DNA from: a virus
Taxonomy: Duplodnaviria; Heunggongvirae; Uroviricota; Caudoviricetes
Virus record (IMG/VR): IMGVR_UViG_2671180963_000005
Reading direction: 5' to 3' (one strand)
Length of the DNA stretch: 22,492 nt
In this document: in pieces, positions 1-20,983 of the stretch
How positions within the stretch are numbered: position 1 is the first letter of the stretch
How the letters are laid out: each line of letters opens with the position of its first letter
Notes under the pieces: generated by a model
What the model was told of the DNA's origin: nothing
Databases searched by the model: none
Seen by the model: only the letters and a program-made list of their open reading frames with translations
Made by a program: the position numbers and the translations under genes

Positions 1-1284
1 TTACTTCTTCGCCTCTGCAACCACTTTACTACCCACGCCGCGGTTATTGTATTCCCACATGCGGTTGTAGTTAGTGTCATTCAGATTGCGCTGTATTTCG
101 TCGTTATCATCTACGCTGCCGGTATTACCCGCAAACGGACGATTAGAGATCACCGCATCGGCCCACGGTTTAGCCGTGTTAAAACCTTCGTTGATGGCGC
201 TATCACGGATCACCACCTGACCGTTGGTATTGGCATCAACATCCAGCGAGCGGCCCAGTTGCGCCACACCATCACCGAAAGCATTGAAACGGCTGTTTAC
301 GGCGAGGAAACCGTAGTAAATGTTGGACAGCGTAGCCGGTGCAAACACATACGCTTCTTGCTGAGTACGTGAGTTCACCACGCGGAATTCGGTGTTATCG
401 AACACCACTGCGCCGCGACCAGAAACGATATCCACATCCCCTTCAATGTAGCTGTTGGTCACCAGCGTACGCGGCTGACGATTTGTTTCCAGACGGTTCT
501 GCACACCGCTGTTGGTGACAAAGAAGGTGTTCTGACGACCGAGAATGTTAACGTTGTTAATCTGTACCTGGTCACCATCAGTACGCAGTGCCACCGCCGG
601 ATGGTTACCTGCATCTACGCTATCGCCCAGCGTGTTTTCGATGGTCAGATTTTGCAGTTGCAGGCCATTGTTTTGTGACCAGAAGACCGCAGAGCAGAGA
701 ACACCGATACTGTCGCTGCGTTTGCTCTGGCAGCTATCGTACATATACCACGCTGGTTTACCTGGCATATATTTGCCGCGCGGGTTGACGTCGTGACGCC
801 AGTCGGCAGGGCTCATGCCACCATCAAGGGAAAGCCCAATCTTCACATCAATCGGTTTTTCACCTGTACCGTACAGAGTAATTCCACCCGGAGCGGCAGG
901 GACATATACCGTTCCCTGATACTCACCAGGCATCACGGCAATATACTGGCGCTTGTTGGTACGCTTGATAATTGCCGCATCTACCGCCGCCTGAATCGTG
1001 GTATGCGTTACACCTTGAGTGCCCGCCGGGCCGACAACAAAGTCAGGTTGCGCAGGCAGGGTAATCGGGGAAGGATTCCACGCTGCAGCACCTGGTGTCA
1101 GGGATGCAAAATAGTGTTGAGCATCGAAATTCTGCGCTTCTTTTGCCGACAGAATCGGGCGAGAAGAGGTACCAGGCGCGGTTTGATCAGAAGGACGTTG
1201 ATCGGGCGGGGTTGAGCTACAGGCGGTCAGCGTCACGCCAAAAGCCAATGCCAGCGCCAGACGGGAAACTGAAAATGTGTTCAC
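1..1284 (-). CDS. ybhC: YbhC, pectinesterase-family outer-membrane lipoprotein (host gene flanking lambda attB)
   Basis: Complete 427-aa ORF with stop at 1-3; N-terminal signal peptide with lipobox LTAC; sequence recognised from memory as E. coli YbhC; its start lies 47 bp from the att core, as at the K-12 attB locus. Confidence 0.85.
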   Translation of the reverse strand: MNTFSVSRLALALAFGVTLTACSSTPPDQRPSDQTAPGTSSRPILSAKEAQNFDAQHYFASLTPGAAAWNPSPITLPAQPDFVVGPAGTQGVTHTTIQAAVDAAIIKRTNKRQYIAVMPGEYQGTVYVPAAPGGITLYGTGEKPIDVKIGLSLDGGMSPADWRHDVNPRGKYMPGKPAWYMYDSCQSKRSDSIGVLCSAVFWSQNNGLQLQNLTIENTLGDSVDAGNHPAVALRTDGDQVQINNVNILGRQNTFFVTNSGVQNRLETNRQPRTLVTNSYIEGDVDIVSGRGAVVFDNTEFRVVNSRTQQEAYVFAPATLSNIYYGFLAVNSRFNAFGDGVAQLGRSLDVDANTNGQVVIRDSAINEGFNTAKPWADAVISNRPFAGNTGSVDDNDEIQRNLNDTNYNRMWEYNNRGVGSKVVAEAKK

Positions 1285-1309: not shown

Positions 1310-1422
1310 AAAATGAATCCGTTGAAGCCTGCTTTTTTATACTAAGTTGGCATTATAAAAAAGCATTGCTTATCAATTTGTTGCAACGAACAGGTCACTA
1401 TCAGTCAAAATAAAATCATTAT
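1310..1422. other. attL (B-O-P') of a lambda-att integrated prophage: core GCTTTTTTATACTAA at 1331-1345, P' arm-type Int sites at about 1392-1422
   Basis: Exact lambda 15-bp core seen in sequence, flanked on the left by the attB B-arm (tgaagcct) and on the right by lambda P' arm sequence gttggcattataaaaaagcattgcttatcaatttgttgcaacgaacaggtcactatcagtcaaaataaaatcatta. Confidence 0.92.
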
Positions 1423-2579
1423 TTGATTTCAATTTTGTCCCACTCCCTGCCTCTGTCATCACGATACTGTGATGCCATGGTGTCCGACTTATGCCCGAGA
1501 AGATGTTGAGCAAACTTATCGCTTATCTGCTTCTCATAGAGTCTTGCAGACAAACTGCGCAACTCGTGAAAGGTAGGCGGATCCCCTTCGAAGGAAAGAC
1601 CTGATGCTTTTCGTGCGCGCATAAAATACCTTGATACTGTGCCGGATGAAAGCGGTTCGCGACGAGTAGATGCAATTATGGTTTCTCCGCCAAGAATCTC
1701 TTTGCATTTATCAAGTGTTTCCTTCATTGATATTCCGAGAGCATCAACATGCAATGCTGTTGGGATGGCAATTTTTACGCCTGTTTTGCTTTGCTCGACA
1801 TAAAGATATCCATCTACGATATCAGACCACTTCATTTCGCATAAATCACCAACTCGTTGCCCGGTAACAACAGCCAGTTCCATTGCAAGTCTGAGCCAAC
1901 ATGGTGATGATTCTGCTGCTTGATAAATTTTCAGGTATTCGTCAGCCGTAAGTCTTGATCTCCTTACCTCTGATTTTGCTGCGCGAGTGGCAGCGACAGG
2001 GTTTGTTGTTATATGGCCTTCAGCTATTGCCTCTCGGAATGCATCGCTCAGTGTTGATCTGATTAACTTGGCTGACGCCGCCTTGCCCTCGTTTATGTAT
2101 CCATTGAGCATTGCCGCAATTTCTTTTGTGGTGATGTCTTCAAGTGGAGCATCAGGCAGACCCCTCCTTATTGCTTTAATTTTGCTCATGTAATTTATGA
2201 GTGTCTTCTGTTTGATTCCTCTGCTGGCCAGGATTTTTTCGTAGCGATCAAGCCATGAATGTAACGTAACGGAATTATCACTGTTGATTCTCGCTGTCAG
2301 AGGCTTGTGTTTGTGTCCTGAAAATAACTCAATGTTGGCCTGTATAGCTTCAGTGATTGCGATTCGCCTGTCTCTGCCTAATCCAAACTCTTTAATGGCT
2401 TTTTTGCTGGCCCCGTGGCGTTGCAAATGATCGATACATAGCGATTCAAACAGGTGCTGGGGCAGGCCTTTTTCCATGTCGTCTGCCAGTTCTGCCTCTT
2501 TCTCTTCACGGGCGATCTGCTGGTAGTGACGCGCCCAGCTCTGAGCCTCAAGACGATCCTGAATGTAATAAGCGTTCAT
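1419..2579 (-). CDS. int: Tyrosine integrase, lambda Int family; residues from [10 protein letters not shown] onward are lambda Int, the first ~62 residues are unrelated to the lambda arm-binding domain
   Basis: 386-aa ORF; C-terminal ~325 aa match lambda Int as remembered (…[28 protein letters not shown]); stop overlaps the P' arm as in lambda; own SD (caggag) 7 nt upstream of the ATG at 2579. Confidence 0.9.
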
Positions 2580-2654
2580 GGCTGAACTCCTGAAAATGGC
2601 TGTGAAAAAATCGCCCGCGGAATGCCAGGCTGATTCGGAAAACAGGAAAGGGGA

Positions 2655-2945
2655 TTAGTGATTCAGACCGTTGCCGCGTCCGTCGAGAAAAACTTCCACG
2701 AGCAAGTCACGGGTATAAGTGCGCTCAATGCCGCGATGCAGATAAAGTCGTCCGTGTAAATTAGCTGATGCAGTCCAGGTACCATCTTTGCGTTTGACCA
2801 GCATTCCTGGCATGACCGCACCGCGATTAACGGTCTGCGTTCCGTAATGTTGATGAACCATAAAAACTCCTGCCCGTAAGCTGGGCTGCTGAACATATAA
2901 AGACTTCTGCGCGTATTCAGGCGGTGGATGGCCGCCGGTTGTCAT
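2655..2945 (-). CDS. Hypothetical protein in the xis position directly upstream of int; no confident homology
   Basis: 96-aa ORF ending 75 bp upstream of int on the same strand; not lambda Xis; function not recognised. Confidence 0.3.
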   Translation of the reverse strand: MTTGGHPPPEYAQKSLYVQQPSLRAGVFMVHQHYGTQTVNRGAVMPGMLVKRKDGTWTASANLHGRLYLHRGIERTYTRDLLVEVFLDGRGNGLNH

Positions 2946-3140
2946 AACTAAGCCGCCTCGTTGAAGCGACTAAGGTATGAAATGTTGAGTTGATTTCAGC
3001 TGGTCACACCGACGTTCACGCGTCCGTTTCATCCCTCGCACTCCCCGAAGCCTGCTGAAATTCAAGCTGCGGATCTAAGCGGTCATCGCAACGGTGAATC
3101 AGGTGGTTGCCGTATCGTTGTGTTGTTGCGATATGGTGAT

Positions 3141-3181
3141 AATAGCTATTGCTATTGGTGATATCAATGCTTATTGCTATT
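3141..3181. promoter_or_regulatory. OL-like operator region: two TTGCTATT motifs 25 bp apart (3149-3156, 3174-3181) plus inverted repeat ATAGC-N4-GCTAT (3142-3155)
   Basis: The same motif pair with identical 25-bp spacing recurs in the cI/cro intergenic region (5729-5736, 5754-5761). Confidence 0.45.
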
Positions 3182-3308
3182 AGTTGATGTGTTTTGATAT
3201 TAAATGTTTGATAGCAAAAAGAATTAATTTTGTGACTTGCATCGCATAGCGATAACTGAAGTGAGGTCGTGGTGGTTTTTTGAACGGTTTGTGTGATGGG
3301 GGGAGGGC

Positions 3309-3335
3309 AAAAGAAAACCCGGCACGGTAGCCGGG
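3309..3335 (-). terminator. Rho-independent terminator at the end of the cI-TAC leftward operon
   Basis: On the minus strand: stem CCCGGC, loop taccgt, stem GCCGGG, followed by TTTTCTTTT, immediately after the stop of the SecB-like ORF. Confidence 0.7.
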
Positions 3336-3349
3336 AGTTATATTTGAAT

Positions 3350-3853
3350 TTAATCTAATGAAGGTATGTCTGATTTATTGAATTTAAAGAATGGTATAGC
3401 TATTGTAGTAATTCCCATTCTGGATGTGCTGTTTTGAACATACTCTCGCCAAAAAGGCCATACATTAAAACCTACATTTTGCTTAGCAAATTCTTCTAAC
3501 TCTTCTTTAGATAATTCTCTCTTTGAGCGATATATCGCCTCAAAAATTGCTTCTATAGAAAAAATTGTATCAACATCATTTTCGTCTTTAGATGTTTCTT
3601 CGGATTTTGCAATAAATCTAAGCCCAACTGAGTAGTGAAAAGAGTAATATAGCTCATTTTTTAATGAGTCATCGTCACTTACTAATTCAATAGCTTCGAT
3701 TTTTTTTATCTTACGAAATGATTGTGTTTGCTTATTTATGCTGTTGAAGTTAAAGCTATTATACCCTTCAGAAAAAGCAAAGTTAGATTCTCTGATATTG
3801 ATATGCATTATTGATAATGCGTCTATTGCTGATCTAAGAAGTTCATTCATCAT
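3350..3853 (-). CDS. SecB-like chaperone, third component of a toxin-antitoxin-chaperone (TAC) module
   Basis: 167-aa ORF; start ATG overlaps the antitoxin stop (ATGA coupling); by-eye similarity to E. coli SecB (IMHINIRESNFAF vs IQRIYTKDISFE; IFSIEAIFE vs IFSIAGIEG; VWPFWREYVQNSTSRMGITTIAIPFFKF vs [28 protein letters not shown]); AT-rich. Confidence 0.65.
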   Translation of the reverse strand: MMNELLRSAIDALSIMHINIRESNFAFSEGYNSFNFNSINKQTQSFRKIKKIEAIELVSDDDSLKNELYYSFHYSVGLRFIAKSEETSKDENDVDTIFSIEAIFEAIYRSKRELSKEELEEFAKQNVGFNVWPFWREYVQNSTSRMGITTIAIPFFKFNKSDIPSLD

Positions 3854-4458
3854 GCTACCCGCTTAGCAACAGTTTTTATCTTTATTGATGTTTGATTCAT
3901 TTTTGTTTGGGCTGGTGATTTGCTGTCAAATCCCTGATCATCGTTTTCAAATTGTGCTTTTGCTTCAGATTTCCATATAGGTAAAGATTTAGATGATGAG
4001 ACTGTTCTTTCAACTTTGATTTCGCCAGATAATTCCCGTAACCTTTTGAATGCATCAGGAACTTCTGCTGCTAAACGCATCAGTTTATCCATTGCTTCTG
4101 ATTGAATGACATCATCAGATTCATACTTGGAAAATGCCTTAGGCCCCCCACCAAATATAGAGGATGCCTTTTGCTGGGTTATCATCCATACTTCAGTTCT
4201 AATTTTTTTTAATTCTTTTCCTGTTAAAAGTCCATCGATAGACTTTTTGTATTCATTGAAAATTCGTTTGTTTTCTCGTAAATCGACTGGTGTGGCAGTT
4301 TCCGAACCACATTGATCACACACAGAAAACCTTATTGGGAGATTTTTTGTTTCCCCTTTATAAGTAACATCATCATACTCCATCTCCACGGTGAGATGAC
4401 CTACACCACAAACTGGACATATGTTGTTGTTTCTCATATAAAAATCCTCATTTATCAT
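3850..4458 (-). CDS. MqsA-like antitoxin (zinc-ribbon N-domain plus HTH-XRE domain) with ~65-aa C-terminal extension (putative chaperone-addiction tail)
   Basis: CPVCG…CDQCG zinc-binding motifs and HTH region ITQQKASSIFGGGPKAFSKYE matching MqsA LTQKEASEIFGGGVNAFSRYE; protein ~70 aa longer than the 131-aa MqsA; start taken as the ATG at 4456-4458 (a GTG at 4459-4461 is an alternative); abuts the toxin stop. Confidence 0.75.
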   Translation of the reverse strand: MINEDFYMRNNNICPVCGVGHLTVEMEYDDVTYKGETKNLPIRFSVCDQCGSETATPVDLRENKRIFNEYKKSIDGLLTGKELKKIRTEVWMITQQKASSIFGGGPKAFSKYESDDVIQSEAMDKLMRLAAEVPDAFKRLRELSGEIKVERTVSSSKSLPIWKSEAKAQFENDDQGFDSKSPAQTKMNQTSIKIKTVAKRVA

Positions 4459-4461
4459 CAC

Positions 4462-4872
4462 TCAATTAGAGAGATGAAGAGATACTGTAAGCACTACATT
4501 GCCAGTAATGTTTACAAAAAATTTAATGTAGAACTCGTTATTAAGTTCTTTATGCATAGCTTGGCACCAAAATGAGTGCTCAAAGCTATAAGCATCACAA
4601 GCTGCCCATACACCTGGTTTACTGCCTTGACACCATTCTGAACCTAGAAATCTCCCTTTAGTGACTGCTTTTATCACCATAGATTTGATGTCATCTGCAT
4701 CTAAAGAAAGCGATTGAACATCCCTGATACACCGTCTAGTCCAAGGCAGTGTGTCACATTCATCAATCAAATCAATGATATCTAAATAAAGCGGACCACC
4801 TTGAATCTTTCTGTCCTCGCCATCACGGGGAGGAGTTCCCACATATCTGCTAAGAATCATACTTGTTACCAT
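4462..4872 (-). CDS. MqsR-like (RelE-fold) toxin, first gene of the TAC module
   Basis: 136-aa ORF immediately upstream of the MqsA-like gene in toxin-first order as in mqsRA; C-terminal YIKFFVNITGNVVLTVSLH resembles MqsR YLKITVIHDVLIVSFKE; alternative start at ATG 4860. Confidence 0.6.
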   Translation of the reverse strand: MVTSMILSRYVGTPPRDGEDRKIQGGPLYLDIIDLIDECDTLPWTRRCIRDVQSLSLDADDIKSMVIKAVTKGRFLGSEWCQGSKPGVWAACDAYSFEHSFWCQAMHKELNNEFYIKFFVNITGNVVLTVSLHLSN

Positions 4873-4991: not shown

Positions 4992-5684
4992 CTACCCATG
5001 CTTCCTATACGTCTGCGGCATGCTTCCGATGACTTTCCCGAAGATGAATACCCGGTTCATCTCGTCTTTCTCGATCGGGTCCCACGGTGAGTAGCTCTTG
5101 TTATCAGAGATAACTAGCAGCTTATCCTTCATCATTTGCAGGCGCTTTACATGGGCTGTGTCGTCATACAGAAACGCATAGATACCATCACCGTCGAAAG
5201 ATTTAACCGTGATATCAACGAACAGAAGATCACCTGGTTCGATCGTTCCTGACATGCTGTCACCGCGTACGTTAATGATGCGGATATTTTCTGCCTTCCT
5301 ACCATCGAACATGTGACGAGCATCGTCAAACGAGTACTCAACCGAGCGTAGAACTTCTACAAACTCACGGTTGATGACTCCCGGCCCGGCACTGACTTCT
5401 ATATCAAGAACGTCAATTTTGAAGTATTTTGAATGGCTGACAGCAGGCTTCCCTGATTGTTGACCGTCATTTCTCATCGGGCCTATGCCTGATGAGAGCC
5501 ATTCTGTTCGAACACCCAATGCATTAGCTATTTCAACAATTTTTGTTGAGCCGCGAGCGTTGCCGCTTGTCAGTCTCCAGATTGTGGGTTGAGCTACGCC
5601 AGACGCCTTTGCAAGAGCGCCTTGAGACATTCCAGATTGTTCCATCGCTAGGTTTAAGCGATCAGCAAGAGTTTCTTTTTTCAT
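4992..5684 (-). CDS. CI-like prophage repressor (HTH-XRE N-domain plus LexA/S24 peptidase C-domain)
   Basis: HTH MSQGALAKASGVAQPTIWRL; S24 motifs GDSM and K-R; divergent to a Cro-like gene; first ATG at 5684 (ORF track extends to a TTG at 5720); likely a leaderless or short-leader mRNA as for lambda cI. Confidence 0.8.
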   Translation of the reverse strand: MKKETLADRLNLAMEQSGMSQGALAKASGVAQPTIWRLTSGNARGSTKIVEIANALGVRTEWLSSGIGPMRNDGQQSGKPAVSHSKYFKIDVLDIEVSAGPGVINREFVEVLRSVEYSFDDARHMFDGRKAENIRIINVRGDSMSGTIEPGDLLFVDITVKSFDGDGIYAFLYDDTAHVKRLQMMKDKLLVISDNKSYSPWDPIEKDEMNRVFIFGKVIGSMPQTYRKHG

Positions 5685-5794
5685 AAGTTTTAATTTATAC
5701 GCTTGCGTATTGATGGTCAAAACACGTTTTGCTATTGCTTGGATTAATACGCATTGCTATTATTCATTCATTGCAATACCAATAGGAATTGATA
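5685..5794. promoter_or_regulatory. Divergent cI/cro promoter-operator region (OR-like): inverted repeat ATACGC-tt-GCGTAT at 5697-5710; TTGCTATT motifs at 5729-5736 and 5754-5761
   Basis: Perfect 6-bp inverted repeat with 2-bp spacer; repeated motifs shared with the 3141-3181 region; lies between divergently transcribed repressor and Cro-like genes. Confidence 0.6.
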
Positions 5795-6678: not shown

Positions 6679-7608
6679 ATGGCAAACACTGCTGAGATAT
6701 TCAATTTTCCAGTGCCGGATGTGGCACAAAAGGAGCGGCGCGTGGCAGATCTCGACGATGGTTATACGCGCATTGCAAATGAGTTGCTGGAAGCTGTGAT
6801 GCTGGCCGGATTAACACAGCACCAGCTTCTGGTCTTCCTGGCTGTCATGCGCAAAACATATGGCTTTAATAAAAGACTGGATTGGGTGAGCAACGAGCAA
6901 CTTTCCGAATTGACCGGGATATTGCCGCACAAGTGTTCTGCTGCAAAAAGCGTTCTGGTAAAGCGTGGGATTCTTATTCAGAGCGGGCGGAATATCGGCA
7001 TTAATAATGTGGTCAGTGAATGGTCAACATTACCCGAATCAGGTAAGAAAAATAAAGTTTACCTGAAAGAGGTAAATTTACCTGAATCAGGTAAAAAAAG
7101 TTTACCCAAATCAGGTAAAGGCGTTTACCCGAATCAGGTAAACACAAAAGACAAACTAACAAAAGACAATATAAAACCTTTTTCGTCCGAGAATTCTGGC
7201 GAATCCTCTGACCAACCAGAAAACGATCTTCCTGTGGTGAAACCGGATGCTGCAATTCAGAGCGGCAGCAAGTGGGGGACAGCAGAAGACCTGACCGCCG
7301 CAGAGTGGATGTTTGACATGGTGAAGACCATCGCGCCATCAGCCAGAAAACCGAATTTTGCAGGGTGGGCTAACGATATCCGCCTGATGCGTGAACGTGA
7401 CGGACGTAACCACCGCGACATGTGCGTGCTGTTCCGCTGGGCATGCCAGGACAACTTCTGGTCCGGTAACGTGCTAAGTCCGGCCAAACTCCGCGACAAG
7501 TGGACCCAGCTCGAAATCAACCGAAACAAGCAACAGGCTGGCGTGACAGCCGGCAAACCAAAACTCGACCTGACGAACACTGACTGGATTTACGGGGTGG
7601 AGCTATGA
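6679..7608 (+). CDS. O: Replication initiator O (hybrid: divergent iteron-binding N-domain, lambda-like P-interacting C-domain)
   Basis: N-terminus aligns with the lambda O start (…VADLDDGY…); C-terminal ~130 aa match lambda O; SD GGGAGG before the ATG at 6679 (an in-frame ATG at 6589 overlapping the upstream stop is an alternative start); iterons inside the gene. Confidence 0.85.
   Translation: MANTAEIFNFPVPDVAQKERRVADLDDGYTRIANELLEAVMLAGLTQHQLLVFLAVMRKTYGFNKRLDWVSNEQLSELTGILPHKCSAAKSVLVKRGILIQSGRNIGINNVVSEWSTLPESGKKNKVYLKEVNLPESGKKSLPKSGKGVYPNQVNTKDKLTKDNIKPFSSENSGESSDQPENDLPVVKPDAAIQSGSKWGTAEDLTAAEWMFDMVKTIAPSARKPNFAGWANDIRLMRERDGRNHRDMCVLFRWACQDNFWSGNVLSPAKLRDKWTQLEINRNKQQAGVTAGKPKLDLTNTDWIYGVEL
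7030..7141. repeat. Replication origin iterons: five copies of TTACC(C/T)(G/A)A(A)(T/A)(C/G)AGGTAA at 7030, 7059, 7078, 7102 and 7125, followed by an A-rich tract (7142-7195)
   Basis: Direct repeats seen in sequence, each internally palindromic (TTACC…GGTAA), inside the O gene and encoding the LPESGKK repeats; same architecture as ori-lambda. Confidence 0.85.
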
Positions 7609-8306
7609 AAAACATCGCCGCACAGATGGTTAACTTTGACTGTGAGCAGATGCGCCGGATCGCCAACAACATGCCGGAACAGTACGACGAAAAGCCACAG
7701 GTACAGCAGGTAGCGCAGATCATCAACGGTGTGTTCAGCCAGTTACTGGCAACTTTCCCGGCGAGCCTGGCTAACCGTGACCAGAATGAACTGAACGAAA
7801 TCCGCCGCCAGTGGGTGCTGGCTTTTCGGGAAAACGGGATCACCACAATGGAACAGGTTAACGCTGGAATGCGCGTAGCCCGTCGGCAGAATCGACCATT
7901 CCTGCCATCACCCGGGCAGTTTGTCGCCTGGTGCCGGGAAGAAGCATCTGTTAACGCCGGGCTGCCAAACGTCAGCGAGCTGGTTGATATGGTTTACGAG
8001 TATTGCCGGAAGCGTGGCCTGTATCCGGATGCAGAGTCTTATCCGTGGAAATCGAACGCGCATTACTGGTTGGTTACCAACTTGTACCAGAACATGCGGG
8101 CCAATGCGCTGACTGACGCGGAATTACGGCGCAAGGCTGCCGATGAACTGACCTGTATGACAGCGCGAATTAACCGTGGTGAGACGATACCTGAACCAGT
8201 AAAACAACTTCCTGTTATGGGCGGTAGACCTCTAAATCGTGCACAGGCTCTGGCGAAGATCGCAGAAATTAAAGCTAAGTTCGGACTGAAAGGAGCAAGT
8301 GTATGA
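7605..8306 (+). CDS. P: Replication protein P (DnaB helicase loader)
   Basis: 233 aa, near-identical to lambda P as remembered (MKNIAAQMVNFD…AKFGLKGASV); ATGA overlap with the O stop. Confidence 0.95.
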   Translation: MKNIAAQMVNFDCEQMRRIANNMPEQYDEKPQVQQVAQIINGVFSQLLATFPASLANRDQNELNEIRRQWVLAFRENGITTMEQVNAGMRVARRQNRPFLPSPGQFVAWCREEASVNAGLPNVSELVDMVYEYCRKRGLYPDAESYPWKSNAHYWLVTNLYQNMRANALTDAELRRKAADELTCMTARINRGETIPEPVKQLPVMGGRPLNRAQALAKIAEIKAKFGLKGASV

Positions 8307-8605
8307 CGGGCAAAGAGGCAATTATTCATTACCTGGGGACGCATAAGAGCTTCTGTGCACAGGACGTTGCCGCGGTAACAGGCGCAACCGTAACCAGCAT
8401 AAATCAGGCTGCGGCTAAAATGGCGCGGGCAGGAATCCTGGTCGTTGATGGTAAGGTCTGGCGAACGGTGTATTACCGGTTCGCTACCAGAGAAGAACGG
8501 GAAGGAAAGGTGAGCACGAATCTGATTTTTAAGGAGTGTCGCCAGAGTGCCGCGATGAAACGGGTATTGAGGGTATATAAAAGAACATCAATGGGAACAC
8601 AATGA
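8303..8605 (+). CDS. ren: Ren (Rex-exclusion relief protein)
   Basis: 100 aa, close match to lambda Ren (MTGKEAIIHYLGTH…ATREEREGK…); ATGA overlap with the P stop. Confidence 0.9.
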   Translation: MTGKEAIIHYLGTHKSFCAQDVAAVTGATVTSINQAAAKMARAGILVVDGKVWRTVYYRFATREEREGKVSTNLIFKECRQSAAMKRVLRVYKRTSMGTQ

Positions 8606-8672
8606 TGAAACAGGTGAGTTGAGTTCAAACTGTAGTACAATTCTCTCCAGTTTGAACAGGAAAGAATATGCT

Positions 8673-9005
8673 ATGAATCCTTATATTTATCTTGGTGGTG
8701 CAATACTTGCAGAGGTCATTGGTACAACCTTAATGAAGTTTTCAGAAGGTTTTACACGGTTATGGCCATCTGTTGGTACAATTATTTGTTATTGTGCATC
8801 ATTCTGGTTATTAGCTCAGACGCTGGCTTATATTCCTACAGGGATTGCTTATGCTATCTGGTCAGGAGTCGGTATTGTCCTGATTAGCTTACTATCATGG
8901 GGATTTTTCGGCCAACGGTTGGACCTGCCAGCCATTATAGGCATGATGTTGATTTGTGCCGGTGTGTTGGTTATTAATTTATTGTCACGAAGCACACCAC
9001 ATTAA
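8673..9005 (+). CDS. emrE: EmrE small multidrug resistance efflux transporter
   Basis: 110 aa from the ATG at 8673, recognised as E. coli EmrE (MNPYIYLGGAILAEVIGTTLMKFSEGF… with Glu14); four TM helices; the ORF-track start at 8619 is an upstream extension. Confidence 0.95.
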   Translation: MNPYIYLGGAILAEVIGTTLMKFSEGFTRLWPSVGTIICYCASFWLLAQTLAYIPTGIAYAIWSGVGIVLISLLSWGFFGQRLDLPAIIGMMLICAGVLVINLLSRSTPH

Positions 9006-9260
9006 AAATAATTTGTTTTTAAACGACTAAAATATGGAGGCTCGTATATTTATATGGGCCTCGTTTTATGCTTTTTGTTAATGTCTTTAGTTTTTATTCA
9101 TTCTTTTGTGCTTTCAAGATTATGGTGTAAGAAAATTGCAATACGATTATTGTTGTATATTCAAGATAATGTGACCTTAATTGTCTTTTTAAATAAAAAT
9201 TAAACAAAAATTATATCCCACCACTAAGGTTTATAAAAGCATACGTTAGCAGGTGTCACC

Positions 9261-10787
9261 ATGAAAAAAGCCATAGCATATATGCGATTTTCATCACCAG
9301 GTCAGATGTCTGGTGATTCATTAAACCGCCAGAGAAGGCTTATTACTGAATGGCTAAAGGTAAATAGTGATTATTACCTTGATACCGTAACGTATGAAGA
9401 TTTGGGGTTAAGCGCATTCAATGGAAAGCATGCACAATCAGGAGCTTTTTCGGAATTTTTAGATGCTATAGAACATGGTTATATATTGCCAGGGACTACA
9501 TTGTTAGTTGAAAGTCTGGACAGACTTTCAAGAGAAAAAGTCGGTGAGGCGATTGAGCGTCTGAAATTGATTTTGAATCACGGTATTGATGTTATAACTC
9601 TTTGCGATAATACAGTCTATAATATTGACTCATTGAATGAGCCATATTCATTAATAAAAGCCATACTTATAGCACAAAGGGCAAATGAAGAAAGCGAGAT
9701 AAAGTCAAGTCGGGTTAAATTATCATGGAAGAAAAAACGGCAGGATGCACTGGAGTCAGGCACGATTATGACGGCGTCTTGTCCGAGATGGCTCTCATTG
9801 GATGACAAAAGAACGGCTTTTGTTCCAGACCCCGACAGGGTGAAAACTATTGAGCTAATTTTTAAACTCAGGATGGAAAGGCGCTCATTGAATGCAATAG
9901 CCAAGTATTTAAATGATCATGCTGTAAAGAATTTCTCAGGAAAAGAAAGTGCATGGGGACCTTCTGTAATTGAAAAATTATTAGCGAATAAAGCTCTGAT
10001 AGGTATATGCGTACCTTCATATCGTGCAAGAGGTAAAGGAATAAGTGAAATCGCTGGCTATTATCCCAGAGTCATATCAGATGATTTGTTTTACGCTGTG
10101 CAGGAAATTCGGTTGGCACCTTTTGGTATTAGCAATAGTAGCAAAAATCCTATGTTGATAAATCTACTTCGAACAGTTATGAAGTGCGAGGCTTGTGGTA
10201 ATACCATGATTGTTCATGCGGTATCTGGAAGTTTGCATGGCTATTATGTTTGTCCGATGAGAAGACTGCATCGATGTGACAGGCCATCAATAAAGAGAGA
10301 TTTGGTTGATTATAATATCATTAATGAGTTGCTTTTTAATTGTAGTAAAATCCAACCAGTTGAAAACAAGAAAGATGCTAATGAAACTTTAGAGTTGAAA
10401 ATTATTGAGCTCCAGATGAAAATTAATAATTTAATTGCTGCATTATCTGTTGCGCCTGAAGTTACCGCTATAGCAGAAAAAATCAGAGTATTAGATAAGG
10501 AATTACGAAGGGCTTCTGTATCATTAAAAACTTTGAAGAGTAAAGCGGTGAGTTCACTTGGTGATTTTCATGCTATTGACTTAACCAGTAAAAATGGGCG
10601 AGAGCTATGTCGTACACTTGCCTATAAAACATTCGAAAAAATCATAATCAATACAGATAATAAAACCTGTGATATCTATTTTATGAATGGCATTGTTTTT
10701 AAACACTATCCTTTAATGAAAACAATATCCGCCCAGCAGGCGATAAGTACTCTCAAATATATGGTTGATGGTGAGGTTTATTTTTGA
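9261..10787 (+). CDS. ybcK: YbcK-like large serine recombinase
   Basis: 508 aa; N-terminal resolvase catalytic domain (YMRFSSPGQ); matches DLP12 YbcK as remembered; AT-rich; follows emrE as in DLP12. Confidence 0.9.
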   Translation: MKKAIAYMRFSSPGQMSGDSLNRQRRLITEWLKVNSDYYLDTVTYEDLGLSAFNGKHAQSGAFSEFLDAIEHGYILPGTTLLVESLDRLSREKVGEAIERLKLILNHGIDVITLCDNTVYNIDSLNEPYSLIKAILIAQRANEESEIKSSRVKLSWKKKRQDALESGTIMTASCPRWLSLDDKRTAFVPDPDRVKTIELIFKLRMERRSLNAIAKYLNDHAVKNFSGKESAWGPSVIEKLLANKALIGICVPSYRARGKGISEIAGYYPRVISDDLFYAVQEIRLAPFGISNSSKNPMLINLLRTVMKCEACGNTMIVHAVSGSLHGYYVCPMRRLHRCDRPSIKRDLVDYNIINELLFNCSKIQPVENKKDANETLELKIIELQMKINNLIAALSVAPEVTAIAEKIRVLDKELRRASVSLKTLKSKAVSSLGDFHAIDLTSKNGRELCRTLAYKTFEKIIINTDNKTCDIYFMNGIVFKHYPLMKTISAQQAISTLKYMVDGEVYF

Positions 10788-10898
10788 GTAATAATCACTT
10801 TTTCAACCGTGCTATAGTAAGAAAGTTAGGTAAGTACAATAAAATTATCTATCCTGAACGAAGCGTCCTGAGCTATGGTTTTACTATAGGGACTGCCA

Positions 10899-11198
10899 AT
10901 GGATGCTGGCGTTCTCGTTCTAGCAGTTCAACAATACCCAATCACAAAACAATTCACTGATAACAAACTTTGTGCACGTGCTTGGTTATGGCGAGCAGGT
11001 GATGTGATGTTAACTGCCTGCCAGAACGTTACTCCACTACTTCAGGTTGCGGAGCACCGCGAAGCCGGCCGCTTTACTTCTATCGAGCAAGAATATCCCC
11101 AGATACTCAACAGAGCGCGAGCAATCCTCGCCAGAGAAACGGCACATGTAAAATTCCAGCCGTGGCTGGATGATAAGTGGAGTCGAGTGTTACCATAA
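10899..11198 (+). CDS. Hypothetical protein (99 aa), unknown function
   Basis: ORF followed by a terminator hairpin; no recognised homology; start uncertain. Confidence 0.35.
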   Translation: MDAGVLVLAVQQYPITKQFTDNKLCARAWLWRAGDVMLTACQNVTPLLQVAEHREAGRFTSIEQEYPQILNRARAILARETAHVKFQPWLDDKWSRVLP

Positions 11199-11240
11199 TT
11201 CCGTCAGAATCTGTTCCAATAAAGTCACTAGTTAGAAATA

Positions 11241-11279
11241 CTGCCAGCATTCTACGATGACGGAAGTGCTGGCATTTTT
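11241..11279 (+). terminator. Rho-independent terminator
   Basis: Stem TGCCAGCA (11241-11248) / TGCTGGCA (11266-11273) followed by TTTTTT, just downstream of the 99-aa ORF. Confidence 0.6.
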
Positions 11280-11456
11280 TGGGTAATATGCGAGTCCATT
11301 TCATAAAATACGGGTGCTGTAAACTGGACGATATAATCTAAAATATACCATTACCAGTAGCGTTCAAATCGCTATGTGCCGATACGGATAAAATTATATT
11401 GATTGTGCACATACCTTATTGGATATTACTGAGGGGTATTTATATAAGGTGTAACG

Positions 11457-11966
11457 ATGATGTGGAACTTTGACAGTGCCGACTTAAGTGCAATAGCAGC
11501 AGGTATTTCTGCGTTTGGCACATTAGCCGCAGCGGGGTCGGCGCTTGCAAGTTGGTACACGTCAAAAAAAGCGCTGCAGCTACAAAATAGAGTTTACCTT
11601 TATGAGTCTTTAAAGGCTTGCGCTGAGAGAGCCAATTCATCAGCTAAAGATAAGCGCGGATCTGAATGGAGCGTTAATGATGCAGCGGATATCATCAGGT
11701 GCCTAGTACGGGCGATGGAGATCATCAAGCAGGATAGCCAGCAGAAAGAAGGTAATCAGGCATTAATGTTGAAACAGTACTTTGTTAATCTGCTAATAAT
11801 GGAACTGTACGAGGAAGTTCATAACGGTGATGCGGCTGATTCTGTTTTTAAAAGTACGGAACCTACACAAGTACTTGATAACTTATGGAGCAAATGGCAG
11901 GAGGCTATAGCTTTTTTTGATATTTGGAATTACCCAGTTGCGACTGAGGAAGACTTGGCAGACTAA
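11457..11966 (+). CDS. Hypothetical membrane-anchored protein (169 aa): N-terminal hydrophobic helix, helical acidic C-domain
   Basis: SD AAGGTG upstream of the ATG; predicted TM segment AIAAGISAFGTLAAAGSALASW; no homologue recognised; sits in the nin-region cargo position. Confidence 0.55.
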   Translation: MMWNFDSADLSAIAAGISAFGTLAAAGSALASWYTSKKALQLQNRVYLYESLKACAERANSSAKDKRGSEWSVNDAADIIRCLVRAMEIIKQDSQQKEGNQALMLKQYFVNLLIMELYEEVHNGDAADSVFKSTEPTQVLDNLWSKWQEAIAFFDIWNYPVATEEDLAD

Positions 11967-12160
11967 TTTTCAGCACATTTGATTTCCAATAATCAACCAG
12001 CCATAATCATGCCATTGGGGCCTGAACAACTCCGGTGACTTCTGCGCTAAACGGGGACGTTTATGCGCACATACAATCCAACCTCTCTTCTCCATTCACA
12101 GATGCAGAAATGCACCTGCGATATTTTGCATCCAGCGTTTGATCTCTGCGGAGGTGAAGC

Positions 12161-12378
12161 GTGAACCTCCCACAAGATGGTATCAAATTGCATCGCGGTA
12201 ACTTCACCGCTATCGGTCGGCAGATCCAGCCTTATCTGGAGGACGGCAAATGCTTTCGCATGGTGCTTAAACCGTGGCGCGAGAGACGCAGTCTTTCCCA
12301 GAATGCACTCAGCCACATGTGGTACAGCGAAATCAGTGAATACCTCATCAGCAAGGGTAAAACGTTCGCCACTCCAGC
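12161..12378 (+). pseudogene. NinB/YbcN-family protein, N-terminal fragment only (truncated at a deletion junction)
   Basis: GTG start with strong SD GGAGGTG; about 70 codons resembling the DLP12 YbcN/NinB N-terminus (…RSLSQNALSHMWYSEISEYL…), then the frame runs into J-derived sequence and stops. Confidence 0.5.
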
Positions 12379-12381
12379 TTG

Positions 12382-13228
12382 GGTATCCGCACCGGCGGGC
12401 GCGTGCTGGCGGTAAACAGCCAGACCCGGACGCTGACGCTCGACCGTGAAATCACGCTGCCATCTTCCGGCACCACGCTGATAAGCCTGGTTGACGGGCA
12501 GGGGAGTCCGGTCAGCGTGGAGGTTCAGTCCGTCACCGACGGCGTGAAGGTGAAAGTGAGCCGTGTTCCTGACGGCGTTGCTGAATACAGCGTATGGGGG
12601 CTGAAGCTGCCGACGTTGCGCCAGCGCCTGTTCCGCTGCGTGAGTATCCGTGAGAACGACGACGGCACGTATGCCATCACCGCCGTGCAGCATGTACCGG
12701 AAAAAGAGGCCATCGTGGATATTGAGAACACCCCTGACGGCATGCAGAGTCAGGTGCTGCTGGCGGCGGACAGGATTGCGATGGTTAATCCTGCGAATGG
12801 CAACACAAAACCGATGTTTGTTGGTCAGGGCGATCAGATATTCATGAACGACGTGTTCCTGAAACGCCTGACGGCCCCCACCATTACCAGCGGTGGAAAT
12901 CCACCGGCATTTTCCCTGACACCGGACGGAAAGCTGACCGCTAAAAATGCGGATATCAGTGGCAGTGTGAATGCGAACGCCGGGACGCTCAACAATGTCA
13001 CGGTAAATGAAAACTGTACGATTAAGGGCATGCTGGAGGCGACTCAGGTCAGAGGTGACTTCGTTAAAGCTGTATCCAAATCATTCCCGAAACAGGCTGG
13101 TACGTGGGGTAATACGGAAACACCAAACGGGACGGTTACAGTCACCATCAGCGATGATCATAACTTTGACCGTCAAATCATTATTCCGCCCATTATCTTT
13201 AACGGAATAGCGTATAGCGATCCGGGAA
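12382..13228 (+). pseudogene. J: Tail tip/host-specificity protein J, C-terminal remnant (N-terminal ~700 codons missing, internal gap, C-terminal end replaced)
   Basis: Translation matches lambda J segments [30 protein letters not shown]…[29 protein letters not shown] and …[54 protein letters not shown]…DDH.FDRQI; no start codon or upstream J sequence. Confidence 0.8.
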
Positions 13229-16078
13229 GTGGTAATAACCGATGCTGCAGGCTCAGCACGTGCCGCCAGCACGTCAGCCGGACAGGCCGCGTCGTCGGCT
13301 CAGTCAGCGTCTTCCAGCGCAGGAACGGCATCGACAAAGGCCCGTGAAGCAGCAAAAAGTGCTGCTGCAGAGTCCTCAAAAAGCGCGGCAGCTACCAGTG
13401 CCGGTGCGGCGAAAACGTCAGAAACGAATGCGGCAGCGTCACAACAATCAGCAGCCACTTCTGCATCCGCCGCGACCACGAAGGCGTCAGAAGCAGCCAC
13501 CTCAGCCCGGGATGCGGCGGCCTCAAAAGAGGCAGCGAAATCATCAGAAACGAACGCATCATCAAGCGCCAGTAGTGCCGCTTCCTCGGCAACGGCGGCA
13601 GGCAATTCCGCGAAGGCGGCAAAGACGTCTGAGACAAACGCCAGGTCTTCTGAAACGGCAGCGGGACAGAGCGCCTCGGCTGCGGCAGGCTCAAAAACAG
13701 CGGCTGCGTCGTCTGCCAGTGCCGCGTCAACAAGTGCCGGGCAGGCCTCAGCCAGTGCCACCGCCGCCGGAAAATCGGCAGAAAGCGCCGCATCGTCTGC
13801 TTCAACAGCCACAACGAAGGCTGGCGAAGCCGCTGAACAGGCCAGCGCAGCAGCGAGGTCTGCATCCGCAGCGAAGACATCCGAAACGAACGCGAAAGCC
13901 TCGGAAACCAGTGCAGAATCCTCAAAAATGGCAGCTGCATCGTCCGCCAGTTCGGCGGCGTCATCGGCATCATCTGCGTCTGCTTCAAAAGATGAGGCGA
14001 GCAGACAGGCATCAGCAGCGAAAGGCAGCGCCACGACAGCATCCACGAAGGCGACAGAGGCAGCTGGCAGTGCGACGGCGGCATCTCAGAGCAAAACTAC
14101 TGCTGAATCCGCTGCGACCCGTGCGGAAGCTGCTGCTGATCGTGCTGAAGAGATTGCCGGTGCAGTTGCGATGGAAGACGCAAGCCTTACAACTAAAGGT
14201 GTTGTGAAACTTAGCAGTGCTGTTGATAGCACCAGTGAATCGCTGGCCGCAACGCCAAAAGCAGTTAAAGCAGCCAATGACAATGCGAATAGCAGGGTGC
14301 CATCTAACCGAAAAGTTAACGGAAAAGCACTGACTGCGGATATAACATTAACGCCGAAAGATATTGGTACTTTAAATTCAGTAACGATGTCTTTCTCTGG
14401 CGGGGCTGGGTGGTTCAAACTGGCTACGGTTACCATGCCACAAGCGAGTTCCATCGTTTACATCGCATTGATTGGTGGCGCTGGTTACAACGTCGGTTCC
14501 CCACATCAGGCAGGCATTTCAGAACTGGTTCTACGAGCAGGCAATGGAAACCCCAAAGGAATTACCGGGGCTTTGTGGAAGCGTACAGCCGTCGGATTAA
14601 CGAATTTCGCCTGGATCAACACATCCGGCGATACATATGATATTTACGTTGAGATTGGCAATTATGCGACGAGTGTAAATATCCATTGGGATTGTACTGC
14701 AAATGCGTCAGTTTCTGTTTATACCTCGCCAACATATTCAGCGAGTAAGCCTTCCAGCGTTACCTATGGTGTTGTTTATACGATGTATAGCTCACATCAG
14801 AAACCTACACCATCAGATATTGGAGCACTGCCAACAACCGGAGGAACAGTTTCAGGTCCGTTGTCTGTTACAGGTGGATTAACTGGTTCATTGAATGGTA
14901 ATGCAAGTACAGCCACGAAATTGCAGACGGCAAGATCTATCGGTGGAGTTGTTTTCGACGGTTCTGCAAATATTAACCTTCCAGGTGTAAACACTACGGG
15001 TAATCAGAACACCACTGGTAATGCTGCAACTGCTACAAAACTCCAGACTGCAAGAAAAATATCCGGTGTTCCATTTGATGGTTCCAAAGATATTACTTTA
15101 ACCGCCGCGCATGTGGCTGCTTTTGCCAGAAGGGCAACGGATACATATGCCGATGCGGATGGTGGCGTTCCCTGGAATGCCGAATCAGGCGCTTACAATG
15201 TCACCCGCTCTGGCGACAGCTATATTCTGGTTAACTTCTATACCGGAGTCGGAAGTTGCCGGACCCTGCAGATGAAGGCGCATTACAGAAATGGTGGTCT
15301 GTTCTACCGTTCTTCAAGAGACGGTTATGGTTTTGAGGAAGGCTGGGCAGAAGTTTATACCTCGAAAAATCTTCCACCAGAAAGCTACCCAGTCGGCGCA
15401 CCAATCCCGTGGCCATCAGATACCGTTCCGTCTGGTTATGCCCTGATGCAGGGGCAGACTTTTGACAAATCTGCTTACCCGAAACTTGCAGCCGCTTATC
15501 CGTCAGGCGTGATCCCTGATATGCGTGGCTGGACGATTAAGGGCAAACCTGCCAGTGGTCGGGCCGTATTGTCTCAGGAACAGGACGGCATTAAATCGCA
15601 CACCCACAGCGCCAGCGCATCCAGTACGGATTTGGGGACGAAAACCACATCGTCGTTTGATTACGGAACCAAATCCACGAATAACACCGGGGCGCATACC
15701 CATAGTATTAGCGGGACCGCAAATAGTGCCGGTGCGCACCAACACAAGAGTTCCGGTGCATTTGGTGGCACGAACACGAGCATTTTCCCTAATGGTTATA
15801 CCGCGATTTCAAATCTAAGCGCGGGGATTATGAGCACAACAAGCGGTAGTGGCCAGACTCGTAATGCAGGGAAGACATCATCAGATGGTGCTCATACCCA
15901 CTCGCTGTCCGGCACTGCTGCAAGCGCAGGCGCACATGCACATACTGTCGGTATTGGTGCTCATACGCACTCCGTTGCGATTGGCTCACATGGACACACC
16001 ATCACCGTTAACGCTGCTGGTAACGCGGAAAACACCGTCAAAAACATCGCATTTAACTACATTGTGAGGCTTGCATAA
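13229..16078 (+). CDS. stf: Side tail fibre protein Stf, 5'-truncated relative to lambda Stf (possibly non-functional)
   Basis: 949-aa ORF from a GTG; homology to lambda Stf begins at its residue ~128 (VTDA…[17 protein letters not shown]); Ala/Ser/Thr-rich repeats (AKTSETNA); C-terminus with His-rich GAH(T/A)HS repeats and …[25 protein letters not shown] as in lambda. Confidence 0.8.
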
Positions 16079-16662
16079 TGGCATTCAGAATGAGTGAACA
16101 ACCACGGACCATAAAAATTTATAATCTGCTGGCCGGAACTAATGAATTTATTGGTGAAGGTGACGCATATATTCCGCCTCATACAGGTCTGCCAGCAAAC
16201 AGTACCTATATTGCACCGCCAGATATTCCGGTAGGCTTCGTGGCTGTTTTCAACAGTGATGAGGCATCGTGGCATCTCGTTGAAGATCATCGGGGAAAAA
16301 CCGTCTATGACGTGGCTTCCGGCGACTCGTTATTTATTTCTGAACTCGGACCTCTACCGGAAAATATCACCTGGTTATCCCCGGAAGGGGAGTTTCAGAA
16401 GTGGAACGGCACAGCCTGGGTGAAGGATACGGAAGCAGAAAAACTGTTCCGGATCCGGGAGGCGGAAGAAACAAAAAACAGCCTGATGCAGGTAGCCAGT
16501 GAGCATATTGCCCCGCTTCAGGATGCTGCAGATCTGGAAATCGCAACGGAGGAAGAAACCTCGTTGCTTGAAGCCTGGAAGAAGTATCGGGTGTTGCTGA
16601 ATCGTGTTGATACATCAACTGCACCTGATATTGAGTGGCCTGCAATCCCTGTTATGGAATAA
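16078..16662 (+). CDS. tfa: Tail fibre assembly protein Tfa
   Basis: 194 aa, near-identical to lambda Tfa ([24 protein letters not shown]…); start overlaps the stf stop (TAATG). Confidence 0.95.
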
Positions 16663-17022
16663 TAGTTTTGTGATATGCCGCAGAAACGTTATATGCAATA
16701 ACGTGCTGCGGTTGGCTGATGTACTTTCGAGAGTGTATTGAATAATTTCCAACCGTCATTAATTTTATTTATTTTTTGTATGAGAGGATTTGAACCTCCG
16801 AGCCTCGACACCTTATGACAACGCGATATTGCCTTGATGACCGCCATGTGCCAAAATAACCAATTGATAAATAAGTTGATTTTAATTGGTTGGAAGCAAG
16901 TCAGGTCAAATTCAGCATTCCGCTCTCTGTATCGGATAGTTAAATTTTTCTATAACTGATAGTAATATGTTAAAACTCACACAGATAAATTATCATTGCT
17001 CAACAAGTATAATGGAGTTCCC

Positions 17023-18978: not shown

Positions 18979-20096
18979 CGACAATAACCGGGAGTGAGCA
19001 ACATACAGCATCACGTATTCCCATGCGAAATATCTGGATGCTGATGCTGTACGCTTCAGATCTGTTTCGCCAGTTAGGACGCAATCAGATCGCAGTAGAA
19101 GATAACCCAGCAGAAATCCCCGACCTGGTGGCGACAATCCTCCTTCATGAGATTACGCTGCGCCGACGTCGCAATTTAAATATGGGATACCAAACTTGTC
19201 ATGCGGCCCTGAACCGGGTGAGAGGGCGCATTGACATACTGTATACTGCCAGTCATCAACTGCTGGAACGGGGACAGGTTGCCTGCCATTTTCAAGACAT
19301 AACCCTCAACACCCCCCGAAATCGCTATGTTCGCTGTGCGTTAGAACGTCTGGCCTCAATCATAGTGAAACCGTCTTTGGCGGCAGATTGCCATTTTATG
19401 GCAATATCACTTCGCCGTGAGGGGATAAATGGAGGATATCCTGCCCCCCGCGAATTACCCTCAGTGTGGCGTTTTGGACGCCATGATGCCGCAGATAAAC
19501 CGATGGTCGATGCCGCACGATTAGCTTTTGAACTGCTGATGCCGACCGAAGATCAAGGCCAATATCTTTTACCTGCGCCCTCAAATAACCTTTACTGGAT
19601 GAGAAGACTATTTGAAAAAGGTATCGCTGGCTTATATCGTGTACACCTTGCCAAAACAACTTGGCAGGTCTCTGCAGGGAAAGAGCTGAAATGGGCGTTG
19701 AGCGATCAAAGTGCAGGTAGTGCAGAGATTTTCCCGACAATGAAGTCAGACATTATTCTGGAACACAAGACTGCCCAGCGGCGTATTATTATCGATACCA
19801 AATTTAATTCGATTCTGACAAAGGGTTGGCATCGGGAGCAATCACTACGTAATGGCTATATTTATCAGCTATATACCTACCTTAGAACACAGGAGAACAA
19901 GACGGATCCGCTTTCGCTCAATGCCGCTGGTCTTCTACTTCATCCAGCTGTTGGCTATATGCTTAATGAGTATGTTGTCACTCAGGGACATAAGATCCAT
20001 TTTGCTACAGTAGATATGACGGTAGATGCTAAAGCAATTAAAAAACAATTGCTGGCAATAGCCCATGATTGTGCAGGAGTCGCGGTTGATGACTAA
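18975..20096 (+). CDS. McrC-like nuclease subunit (PD-(D/E)xK) of the type IV restriction system
   Basis: 373 aa; ATGA overlap with the mcrB-like stop; N-terminal IPMRNIWMLMLYA resembles McrC IPVRNIYYMLTYA; C-terminal PD…D-x-K candidates (KSDIILEH…IIIDTKF). Confidence 0.8.
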   Translation: MTTITGSEQHTASRIPMRNIWMLMLYASDLFRQLGRNQIAVEDNPAEIPDLVATILLHEITLRRRRNLNMGYQTCHAALNRVRGRIDILYTASHQLLERGQVACHFQDITLNTPRNRYVRCALERLASIIVKPSLAADCHFMAISLRREGINGGYPAPRELPSVWRFGRHDAADKPMVDAARLAFELLMPTEDQGQYLLPAPSNNLYWMRRLFEKGIAGLYRVHLAKTTWQVSAGKELKWALSDQSAGSAEIFPTMKSDIILEHKTAQRRIIIDTKFNSILTKGWHREQSLRNGYIYQLYTYLRTQENKTDPLSLNAAGLLLHPAVGYMLNEYVVTQGHKIHFATVDMTVDAKAIKKQLLAIAHDCAGVAVDD

Positions 20097-20796
20097 CCAT
20101 CCTATAAGGCACTGGCTGTAATATAATCAATAGTTTCAATTAAGTAGCTGTTATCCGTGCTTAGTCATCATATGACGCACCACGGTCTAATTTTCCTGCT
20201 CATACATTGATATATCCTTGTCGTGCCCGGAAAGTCGCAGTCCACTATGAGGTATACCGATTGCCAGCACCAAAAGCTTCTTTGTGATTATTATATCGGG
20301 GAATGCCTATTTTTTTAGTGACAATATCAGATAGCAATTAATAAGCGGTGCCGGTAATGGATGTTATGTTTAATGTATAGACACAGCCATCATAAACTAA
20401 ACGTCTGTTGTTCGCTCATAACCGACATTTATCTCAGTTATGGAGGATAATTATGTATGCAGATAATGGGGCAGACAGTCGTGGAGTAAACAAGGTTTTG
20501 CACTGCTTGGCGGCATCGTTATCTTATTTTTAATTATGTGCCTCTTAACATAAGTTGGGACAAAACAGAGACACATAAGGTCTCACAAAGGTCTGCAAGG
20601 CCTCACATGTATTGAGATGTTAATAAAATGTAGACTTGTAATTTGGATATAAATGGTAGAGAAAACCTTTCCCCAAAATAAAAACGAACGTCAATGAAAT
20701 CAAACGGTTGAATAAAGTTTATTTTGGCTAATAAAAAGACAATAAAATAATTTTTATCGTTAAATATCAATGACTTGAATTCATGGTTTTTATATA

Positions 20797-20961
20797 CTGC
20801 TGCGCCATATGGGTTGGACTGAAGCGGCTGACCTGATTGTTAAAGGTATGGAAGGCGCAATCAATGCCAAGACCGTAACTTATGACTTCGAACGTCTGAT
20901 GGAAGGCGCTAAGCTGCTGAAATGTTCAGAGTTTGGTGAAGCGATCATCGAAAACATGTAA
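20797..20961 (+). pseudogene. icd: 3'-terminal fragment of icd (isocitrate dehydrogenase; last ~52 codons plus stop), phage-borne attP-type copy as in e14/phage 21
   Basis: Translates to [54 protein letters not shown], matching the Icd C-terminus with D-to-E substitutions; no upstream icd sequence. Confidence 0.85.
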
Positions 20962-20983
20962 TCTCTCCATGTGTTAAATATTG

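Follow-up and report, generated by a model that had tools for sequence, protein, structure and literature searches.

The 386-residue protein encoded beside ybhC in this lambdoid element reads as a chimera in which the beginning of gam runs in frame into most of int. We are confident that it is a decay product (a pseudogene) of a deleted lambdoid prophage, and that it locks the element in the chromosome. The gene lies in a stretch of 22,492 nt, hereafter the window, whose features near the fusion are listed in Table 1. Such deletions are a familiar phenomenon, and RefSeq already marks the locus as two partial genes; in the literature we found no specific prior description of a gam-int fusion or of cryptic prophages at the ybhC site.

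Table 1. Features of the window around the gam-int fusion
Feature	Position in window	Strand	Basis or detail
ybhC, chromosomal gene left of the lambda attachment site	1..1284	-	Annotated in E2 and 55989 (collinear); Pfam Pectinesterase
att core (O) of attL, GCTTTTTTATACTAA	1331..1345	+	Exact match, sole copy in window
P' arm of lambda attP	1346..1418	+	Arm-type repeats CAGGTCACTAT / CAGTCAAAAT / AAAATCATTAT from about 1391
Fusion ORF	1419-2579	-	386 aa
int-derived part: Int codons 33-356 and stop	1419..2392	-	blastn, Pfam and PDB matches
Deletion junction, TA on coding strand, common to gam and int parents	2393..2394	-	Overlap of blastn blocks
gam-derived part; with junction TA, GamS codons 1-62; ATG at 2577-2579	2395..2579	-	Pfam, PHROG, lambda alignment
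Shine-Dalgarno CAGGAG of gam, now heading the fusion ORF	2587-2592	-	7 nt upstream of ATG
Kil/KilR-like cell-division (FtsZ) inhibitor gene, 68 aa	2655..2861	-	Directly upstream, same leftward operon
Candidate pL-type promoter, TTGATA-17-TATTAT at 3167-3139	3133..3182	-	Top promoter-like site of region, 10/12 matches
Terminator-like hairpin ending the repressor-MqsRAC unit, upstream of candidate pL	3318..3335	-	Consensus scan only
Prophage repressor, HTH and S24 peptidase	4992..5720	-	Pfam Peptidase_S24 and HTH_3; PGAP XRE family regulator

Composition of the fusion and the deletion junction

The larger part of the fusion protein, residues 63-386, corresponds to lambda Int 33-356, with 321 of 324 residues identical from K33 on and three substitutions (D133N, H164P, I248V). 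The catalytic set (R212, K235, H308, R311, H333, Y342) is complete and stands at the lambda positions. Pfam detects Phage_integrase (E=2e-40) together with Phage_int_SAM_1 and Phage_int_M, and the core-binding domain (Int 75-175) is present, matching PDB 2OXO across all 103 of its residues. The full-length Int structures 1z1b and 5j0n are matched over chain residues 31-356. Of the arm-binding domain, only the second half is detected: Arm-DNA-bind_1 falls on fusion residues 63-99 with profile positions 38-74 of 74, and the match to PDB 1KJK, the isolated Int N-domain, is limited to residues 30-64 of that structure. A complete arm-binding domain (Int 1-63) is absent, the DNA having lost Int codons 1-31 along with two bases of codon 32, and what is kept from int consists of the C-terminal half of this domain followed by the core-binding and catalytic domains. 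Modelling of the chimera from its sequence alone (AlphaFold2) gave an unusable result (mean pLDDT 39.9, pTM 0.21).

The smaller, N-terminal part has a different source. Pfam assigns fusion residues 1-64 to Gam (PF06064, E=1.8e-38, profile positions 1-64 of 98), and PHROGs places the gam-like phrog_259 over the same residues, with the split falling as in Pfam. By direct translation of lambda, fusion residues 1-62 are identical to GamS at 60 of 62 positions, and the GamS entries 5MBV and 2UUZ match the N-terminus. The long-helix region at the N-terminus of Gam, within PF06064 profile positions 1-64, is present; profile positions 65-98 are absent, the sequence turning to Int after residue 62. BLASTP gave no alignment between fusion residues 1-62 and lambda Int 1-64, even at E<=100. 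An origin of the N-terminus from lambda orf63 was also considered and ruled out by Pfam, PHROGs and the direct translation of lambda, which give Gam. Judging from these matches, residues 1-62 are the first 62 residues of the 98-aa host-nuclease (RecBCD) inhibitor Gam and are not a DNA-binding domain of any integrase. GamS comprises residues 41-138 of Gam and is active as a dimer of the 98-aa chain; its long N-terminal helix enters the RecB channel (PMC5218532).

The start signals of the fusion are likewise those of gam. The sequence CAGGAGTTCAGCCATG, which contains the Shine-Dalgarno motif, is also found upstream of the GamS start in lambda. No in-frame upstream start of the GamL type exists at the locus, a stop lying 25 codons upstream with no start codon between it and the ATG. 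Other E. coli prophages have annotated 98-aa gam genes with the same in-frame stop upstream, and the locus of the fusion, like most E. coli prophages, has the 98-aa GamS-type gene only. In comparison with GamS (PDB 2UUZ, 2UV1, 5MBV), the fusion has its start codon, its Shine-Dalgarno and nearly all of its residues 1-62, while the last 36 of the 98 residues are replaced by Int. The comparison with lambda Int (PDB 1Z1B, 1Z1G, 5J0N) gives the complementary picture: Int 33-356, with the core-binding and catalytic domains and the catalytic set, is shared, as are the location at the lambda attachment site and a P' arm identical to that of lambda, whereas Int 1-32, xis and the pI promoter region are missing and a Gam-derived N-terminus stands instead. 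In lambda, pI is carried by the DNA that is deleted here.

At the nucleotide level, two blocks of the window match lambda (blastn). Window 1331-2394 corresponds to lambda 27724-28787 with 99.6% identity (4 mismatches), and window 2393-2661 corresponds to lambda 32926-33193 with 96.3% identity. The blocks overlap by 2 nt, a microhomology TA, and in a three-line alignment the join reads on the coding strand as gam ...AAAAAAGCCAT-TA-AAGAGTTTGG... int. The lambda interval between the blocks measures 4138 bp and holds the first 95 nt of int, xis, ea8.5, ea22, orf61, orf63, orf60a, exo, bet and the 3' third of gam.

An undeleted relative occupies the ybhC site in E. coli 55989 (NC_011748 821226-835959), where the order is ybhC-int(356 aa)-xis-...-exo-bet-gam(98 aa)-kil-like-repressor. 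The window matches this prophage at 99.8% up to position 2394, int and attL included, and resumes 4086 bp further on with an identical 2-nt overlap. The two elements also share a kil-like gene, a repressor-type region, O, P, ren, emrE and ybcK in the same order. They differ in that 55989 retains int (356 aa), xis, the genes between exo and xis, exo, bet and a full gam, all of which the element in the window has lost in whole or in part; conversely, 55989 is without the MqsRAC-like insert described below, and its repressor allele differs from that of the window (about 90% identity). The halves of the fusion are separate genes in this intact relative at the same site, and the DNA missing from the window is what lies between them.

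We attribute the fusion to a single illegitimate deletion, because its two blocks are collinear with gam and int of 55989 and overlap by 2 nt at the join. The ancestor would have been a lambdoid prophage similar to that of 55989, integrated at the lambda attachment site beside ybhC, with the order attL-int-xis-...-exo-bet-gam-kil-...-repressor. One deletion of about 4.1 kb, between the TA in gam codons 62/63 and the TA in int codons 32/33, would have taken away the 5' end of int (codons 1-31 with two bases of codon 32), the pI promoter region, xis, the genes lying between exo and xis, exo, bet, and codons 63-98 of gam. The two genes were joined in frame by luck, with a prior chance of 1 in 3, and the start codon and Shine-Dalgarno of gam now head a 386-aa chimera, Gam(1-62)-Int(33-356).

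Much of what the earlier note had read from this locus agrees with these results. The breakpoint that it expected near 2400 is placed at window 2393/2394, the protein is lambda Int from residue 63 on, the first 62 or so residues are indeed unlike the lambda arm-binding domain, and the gene has a Shine-Dalgarno (caggag) of its own, which belongs to gam. Its description of core-binding and catalytic domains fused to an unrelated segment holds for these two domains and has to be amended for the segment between, as Int 33-63 (the last beta-strand region and the helix of the arm-binding domain) is kept too. Of the two origins it offered, creation by deletion is the one borne out by the collinearity of the halves with gam and int, about 4.1 kb apart in both 55989 and lambda.

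Attachment site, expression and predicted activity

The att core of the window corresponds to lambda 27724-27738, annotated there as misc_recomb, and core and P' arm together (window 1331-1418) are identical to lambda 27724-27811 at 88 of 88 positions. We take the repeats in the P' arm to be arm-type sites, naming them after lambda attP. Neither a second att core nor a P arm or a lambda-type attR was found within the 22,492 nt of the window. In genome E2 the element ends near ybhB, with an attR that has 14 of the 15 core positions and a P arm 85.8% identical to that of lambda. The xis gene falls inside the deleted interval, and no excisionase gene is annotated in the carrier genomes. The N-terminal domain of Int (residues 1-63) contacts arm DNA by way of its flexible N-terminal tail together with a three-stranded sheet, which a helix buttresses (PMC2831311); the tail and most of the arm-contacting beta-sheet are missing from the fusion. 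Because only half of the arm-binding domain remains and xis is lost, the element is predicted to be unable to excise by itself. Excision with the aid of a helper phage might conceivably occur in E2, where attR remains. The earlier note had seen a lambda P' arm in attL and had put arm recognition and excision in doubt, as would suit a locked-in cryptic prophage. Both points stand, the first through the 88 identical positions and the second through the lost tail and sheet; the deletion of xis and of the late genes and the lack of a second att core in the window agree with the locked-in reading.

Directly upstream of the fusion lies a gene for a Kil-like protein, identified by PHROG 294 (Kil, E=4.8e-36) and PF27398 (KilR) and called 'cell division inhibitor protein' by PGAP; the NCBIfam FtsZ inhibitor model scores 58.1 bits, under its curated cut-off of 92. 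A 50-nt repeat with 72% identity links the candidate pL to window 5713-5762, the intergenic region of repressor and cro, and an operator-like ATAGCAAT occurs at 3148, 3173 and 5753. The region upstream of kil looks like a pL/OL arrangement. No lambda N gene or nut site was hit between the candidate pL and kil, where there is no room for them. Because of the pL/OL-like arrangement, we infer that the repressor would silence the leftward operon, including the fusion, in the lysogen and that SOS induction would free its expression. The chimera would then be made only upon repressor inactivation, from the pL-like promoter upstream of kil.

If made, the chimera should not bind P or P' sites nor assemble an integrative or excisive intasome, because only residues 33-63 of the arm-binding domain are kept. 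Laboratory N-terminal truncations of Int resemble the fusion, and these are reported (Sarkar et al. 2001) to keep core-site activities and not att recombination. By analogy, the chimera may at most keep arm-independent core binding and cleavage. The Gam piece, for its part, is unlikely to act as a normal dimeric RecBCD inhibitor, since the C-terminal third (the last 36 residues) is missing. The chimera thus fails on both counts: it lacks the complete arm-binding domain and the xis of a lambda-type integrase, and it lacks the C-terminal third of Gam.

The remainder of the element

Set against complete genomes of the same lineage, the window combines two prophages. Positions 1 to ~8600 are collinear with the ybhC-site prophage of E2, and positions ~8678 to 22492 with its icd-site prophage, which lies 585 kb away in that genome. 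The switch, at ~8597-8677, falls inside a P-ren-emrE-ybcK repeat shared by the two prophages (window 7371-10796, ~97% identity). This hybrid join of two prophages is present in none of the 5426 complete genomes and in one other draft contig (GCA_958309015.1, L008), with 22 mismatches. Rearrangement may have brought the two prophages together, or the join may be an assembly artefact; inversions or misassembly would account for it, because a direct-repeat product would delete essential genes. The gam-int junction is unaffected by it.

Just downstream of the repressor, on the minus strand, is a three-gene module (window 3350-4872) with a 136-aa ORF, an MqsA-family antitoxin carrying a C-terminal extension of ~60 aa, and a SecB-like chaperone. 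The 136-aa ORF has no match in Pfam, NCBIfam, PHROGs or PADLOC. The module looks like a toxin-antitoxin-chaperone system of the MqsRAC type. The corresponding position after the repressor is held by rexAB in lambda. An MqsRAC of E. coli defends against T2 (PMC9519451).

Further to the right, a truncated ninB/ybcN gene runs into a tail-tip J-like fragment (window 12161-13239), with the junction at about 12382-12385. This ybcN'-J' junction represents a second large deletion, with loss of Q, the lysis and head genes and most tail genes. The loss of all late genes at this junction and the presence of partial tail genes are further signs of decay in the element. In the 949-aa tail-fibre ORF, the N-terminal third consists of a low-complexity repeat rich in Ala, Ser, Thr and Lys (window 13229-14300, plus strand), which leaves long spurious ORFs in the other frames of both strands. 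Rfam has a single hit in the window, IS009 (214 bits), at 16421-16619 on the plus strand, inside tfa; neither the Rfam nor the tRNA scan of the window returned anything relevant to the gam-int locus.

At the right end, window 16996-20096 encodes on the plus strand a 660-aa AAA ATPase (McrB-like) and a 373-aa McrC homologue. The pair lies between a tail-fibre assembly gene and an icd' remnant, as type IV restriction-like cargo at the prophage end. The remnant, at about 20794-21014, is a partial duplicate of the 3' end of icd (92.6% identical to icd), and iraM, ymgK, ymgL and ycgX follow. Because of this icd' duplicate, we regard the right boundary as an e14-type attachment site and not as lambda attR. 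In the icd-site prophage of E2 (L006), positions 8881-9771 hold another deletion junction, where a truncated lambda-exonuclease gene abuts a partial O on the opposite strand.

Carriers, alleles and rival readings

The gam-int junction was found in 12 of 5426 complete E. coli genomes, 100% identical in 11 of them, with the twelfth holding a variant allele. The carriers are mostly from chickens (Korea, Japan, USA). In a large collection the exact 386-aa protein occurs on 311 contigs, always beside ybhC. Its naming depends on the source: GenBank and UniRef call the fusion protein plain 'integrase', and the PGAP/RefSeq annotation of the carriers gives two pseudogenes, 'tyrosine-type recombinase/integrase, missing N-terminus' and 'Gam family protein, missing C-terminus'. 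Since the carriers seem to belong to one clonal lineage or a few, the identity between contigs tells us little about selection.

The variant allele, in Z1323CEC0014 (L002, NZ_CP148426.1, 5170-6330), is intact, its ORF differing at 22 nucleotides and 3 residues. One change, G for T at window 2395, is next to the junction (I62S). Up to the base next to the junction, the int segment shows 100% identity with the O103-type int allele, which is common in other E. coli. The SNPs are confined to the window-equivalent intervals 1363-2662 and 7181-8678, and the remainder is almost identical. Such a mosaic suggests that lambdoid elements, co-resident or incoming, have recombined. As the int part matches a common allele and the SNPs are local, we consider that the variation was imported by homologous exchange and not selected; a reading of the 22 nucleotide against 3 amino-acid differences as purifying selection on the fusion was rejected, the int segment being a widespread ordinary allele. 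An origin of the two alleles in independent deletions is very unlikely, given that they share the frame and that their breakpoints agree to within 1 nt on either side, and we prefer one fusion event followed by recombination or a point change.

Other deletions have removed the same part of int. EC01 (L018, NZ_CM169500.1, 5071-6083) carries an independent gam-int deletion at the ybhC site, which joins Gam 1-28 to int out of frame, with a 5-nt overlap and 4231 bp lost. In O103:H2 12009 (L019, NC_013353.1, 9071-10153), int is cut at ~codon 14 and joined to a Dam-methylase/nin-region fragment; PGAP still calls the product a 360-aa integrase. As in the window, the 5' end of int and xis were lost by deletion in both, with breakpoints that differ, and only the window's type is in frame with gam. 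These two cases indicate that the loss recurs without the reading frame being kept. A 122-aa truncated derivative of the fusion itself also exists (P0013). The out-of-frame deletion of EC01, the cut int of O103:H2 12009 and the truncated derivative argue against upkeep of the chimera, and the variant allele is accounted for by recombination; the frame is probably not maintained by selection.

[quoted passage not shown] Such a use would suit an ORF that is intact, with its own Shine-Dalgarno and all catalytic residues, set in an operon behind a candidate repressor-controlled promoter, found as the exact same protein on 311 contigs and in a second intact allele. The long N-terminal helix of GamS, moreover, is the part that enters the RecB channel (PMC5218532). 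Against it, the independent gam-int deletion of EC01 is out of frame, one derivative is truncated to 122 aa, recombination with ordinary int alleles accounts for the allelic variation, the apparent clonality of the carriers makes contig identity uninformative on selection, and the C-terminal third of Gam is gone. We give this reading only a slim chance, and a shade less to its fuller form, in which an SOS-inducible chimera is expressed, is useful in a core-site role (disturbing the integration or excision of incoming lambda-type phages at attB) or a RecBCD role, and has been retained in a poultry-associated E. coli lineage; what speaks for this form is the intact frame.

Far less probable still is the other origin suggested in the earlier note, in which the arm-binding domain was exchanged for another DNA-binding module with new arm-site specificity. 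An intact ORF of which only the N-terminus is unlike lambda Int could have looked this way. The residues in question have turned out to be Gam, however, and not the functional arm-binding domain of another integrase, with the 60 of 62 identities to lambda GamS given above; Gam mimics DNA and does not bind it, the lambda arm-binding domain still has its second half in place, the attL arm is 100% lambda P', and the flanks of the junction are collinear with the gam and int genes of a single prophage, where these lie 4.1 kb from each other. A chimeric join of reads or contigs, conceivable in a window that joins two prophages 585 kb apart in genomes of the same lineage, is just as improbable, since 11 complete genomes, produced by several laboratories, share the junction with 100% identity and the protein lies beside ybhC on all 311 contigs.

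We therefore retain the reading of the chimera as a decay product, and its import is mainly for annotation: the 'integrase' of GenBank and UniRef is a gam'-'int deletion chimera, and typing of prophages or att sites that is based on integrases would wrongly count it as a functional integrase. Were the chimera active after all, it would be a natural analogue of the laboratory N-terminally truncated Int. More broadly, prophages at the lambda site repeatedly lose the 5' end of int together with xis, with at least three breakpoints, which fits the general picture of prophage domestication by deletion.
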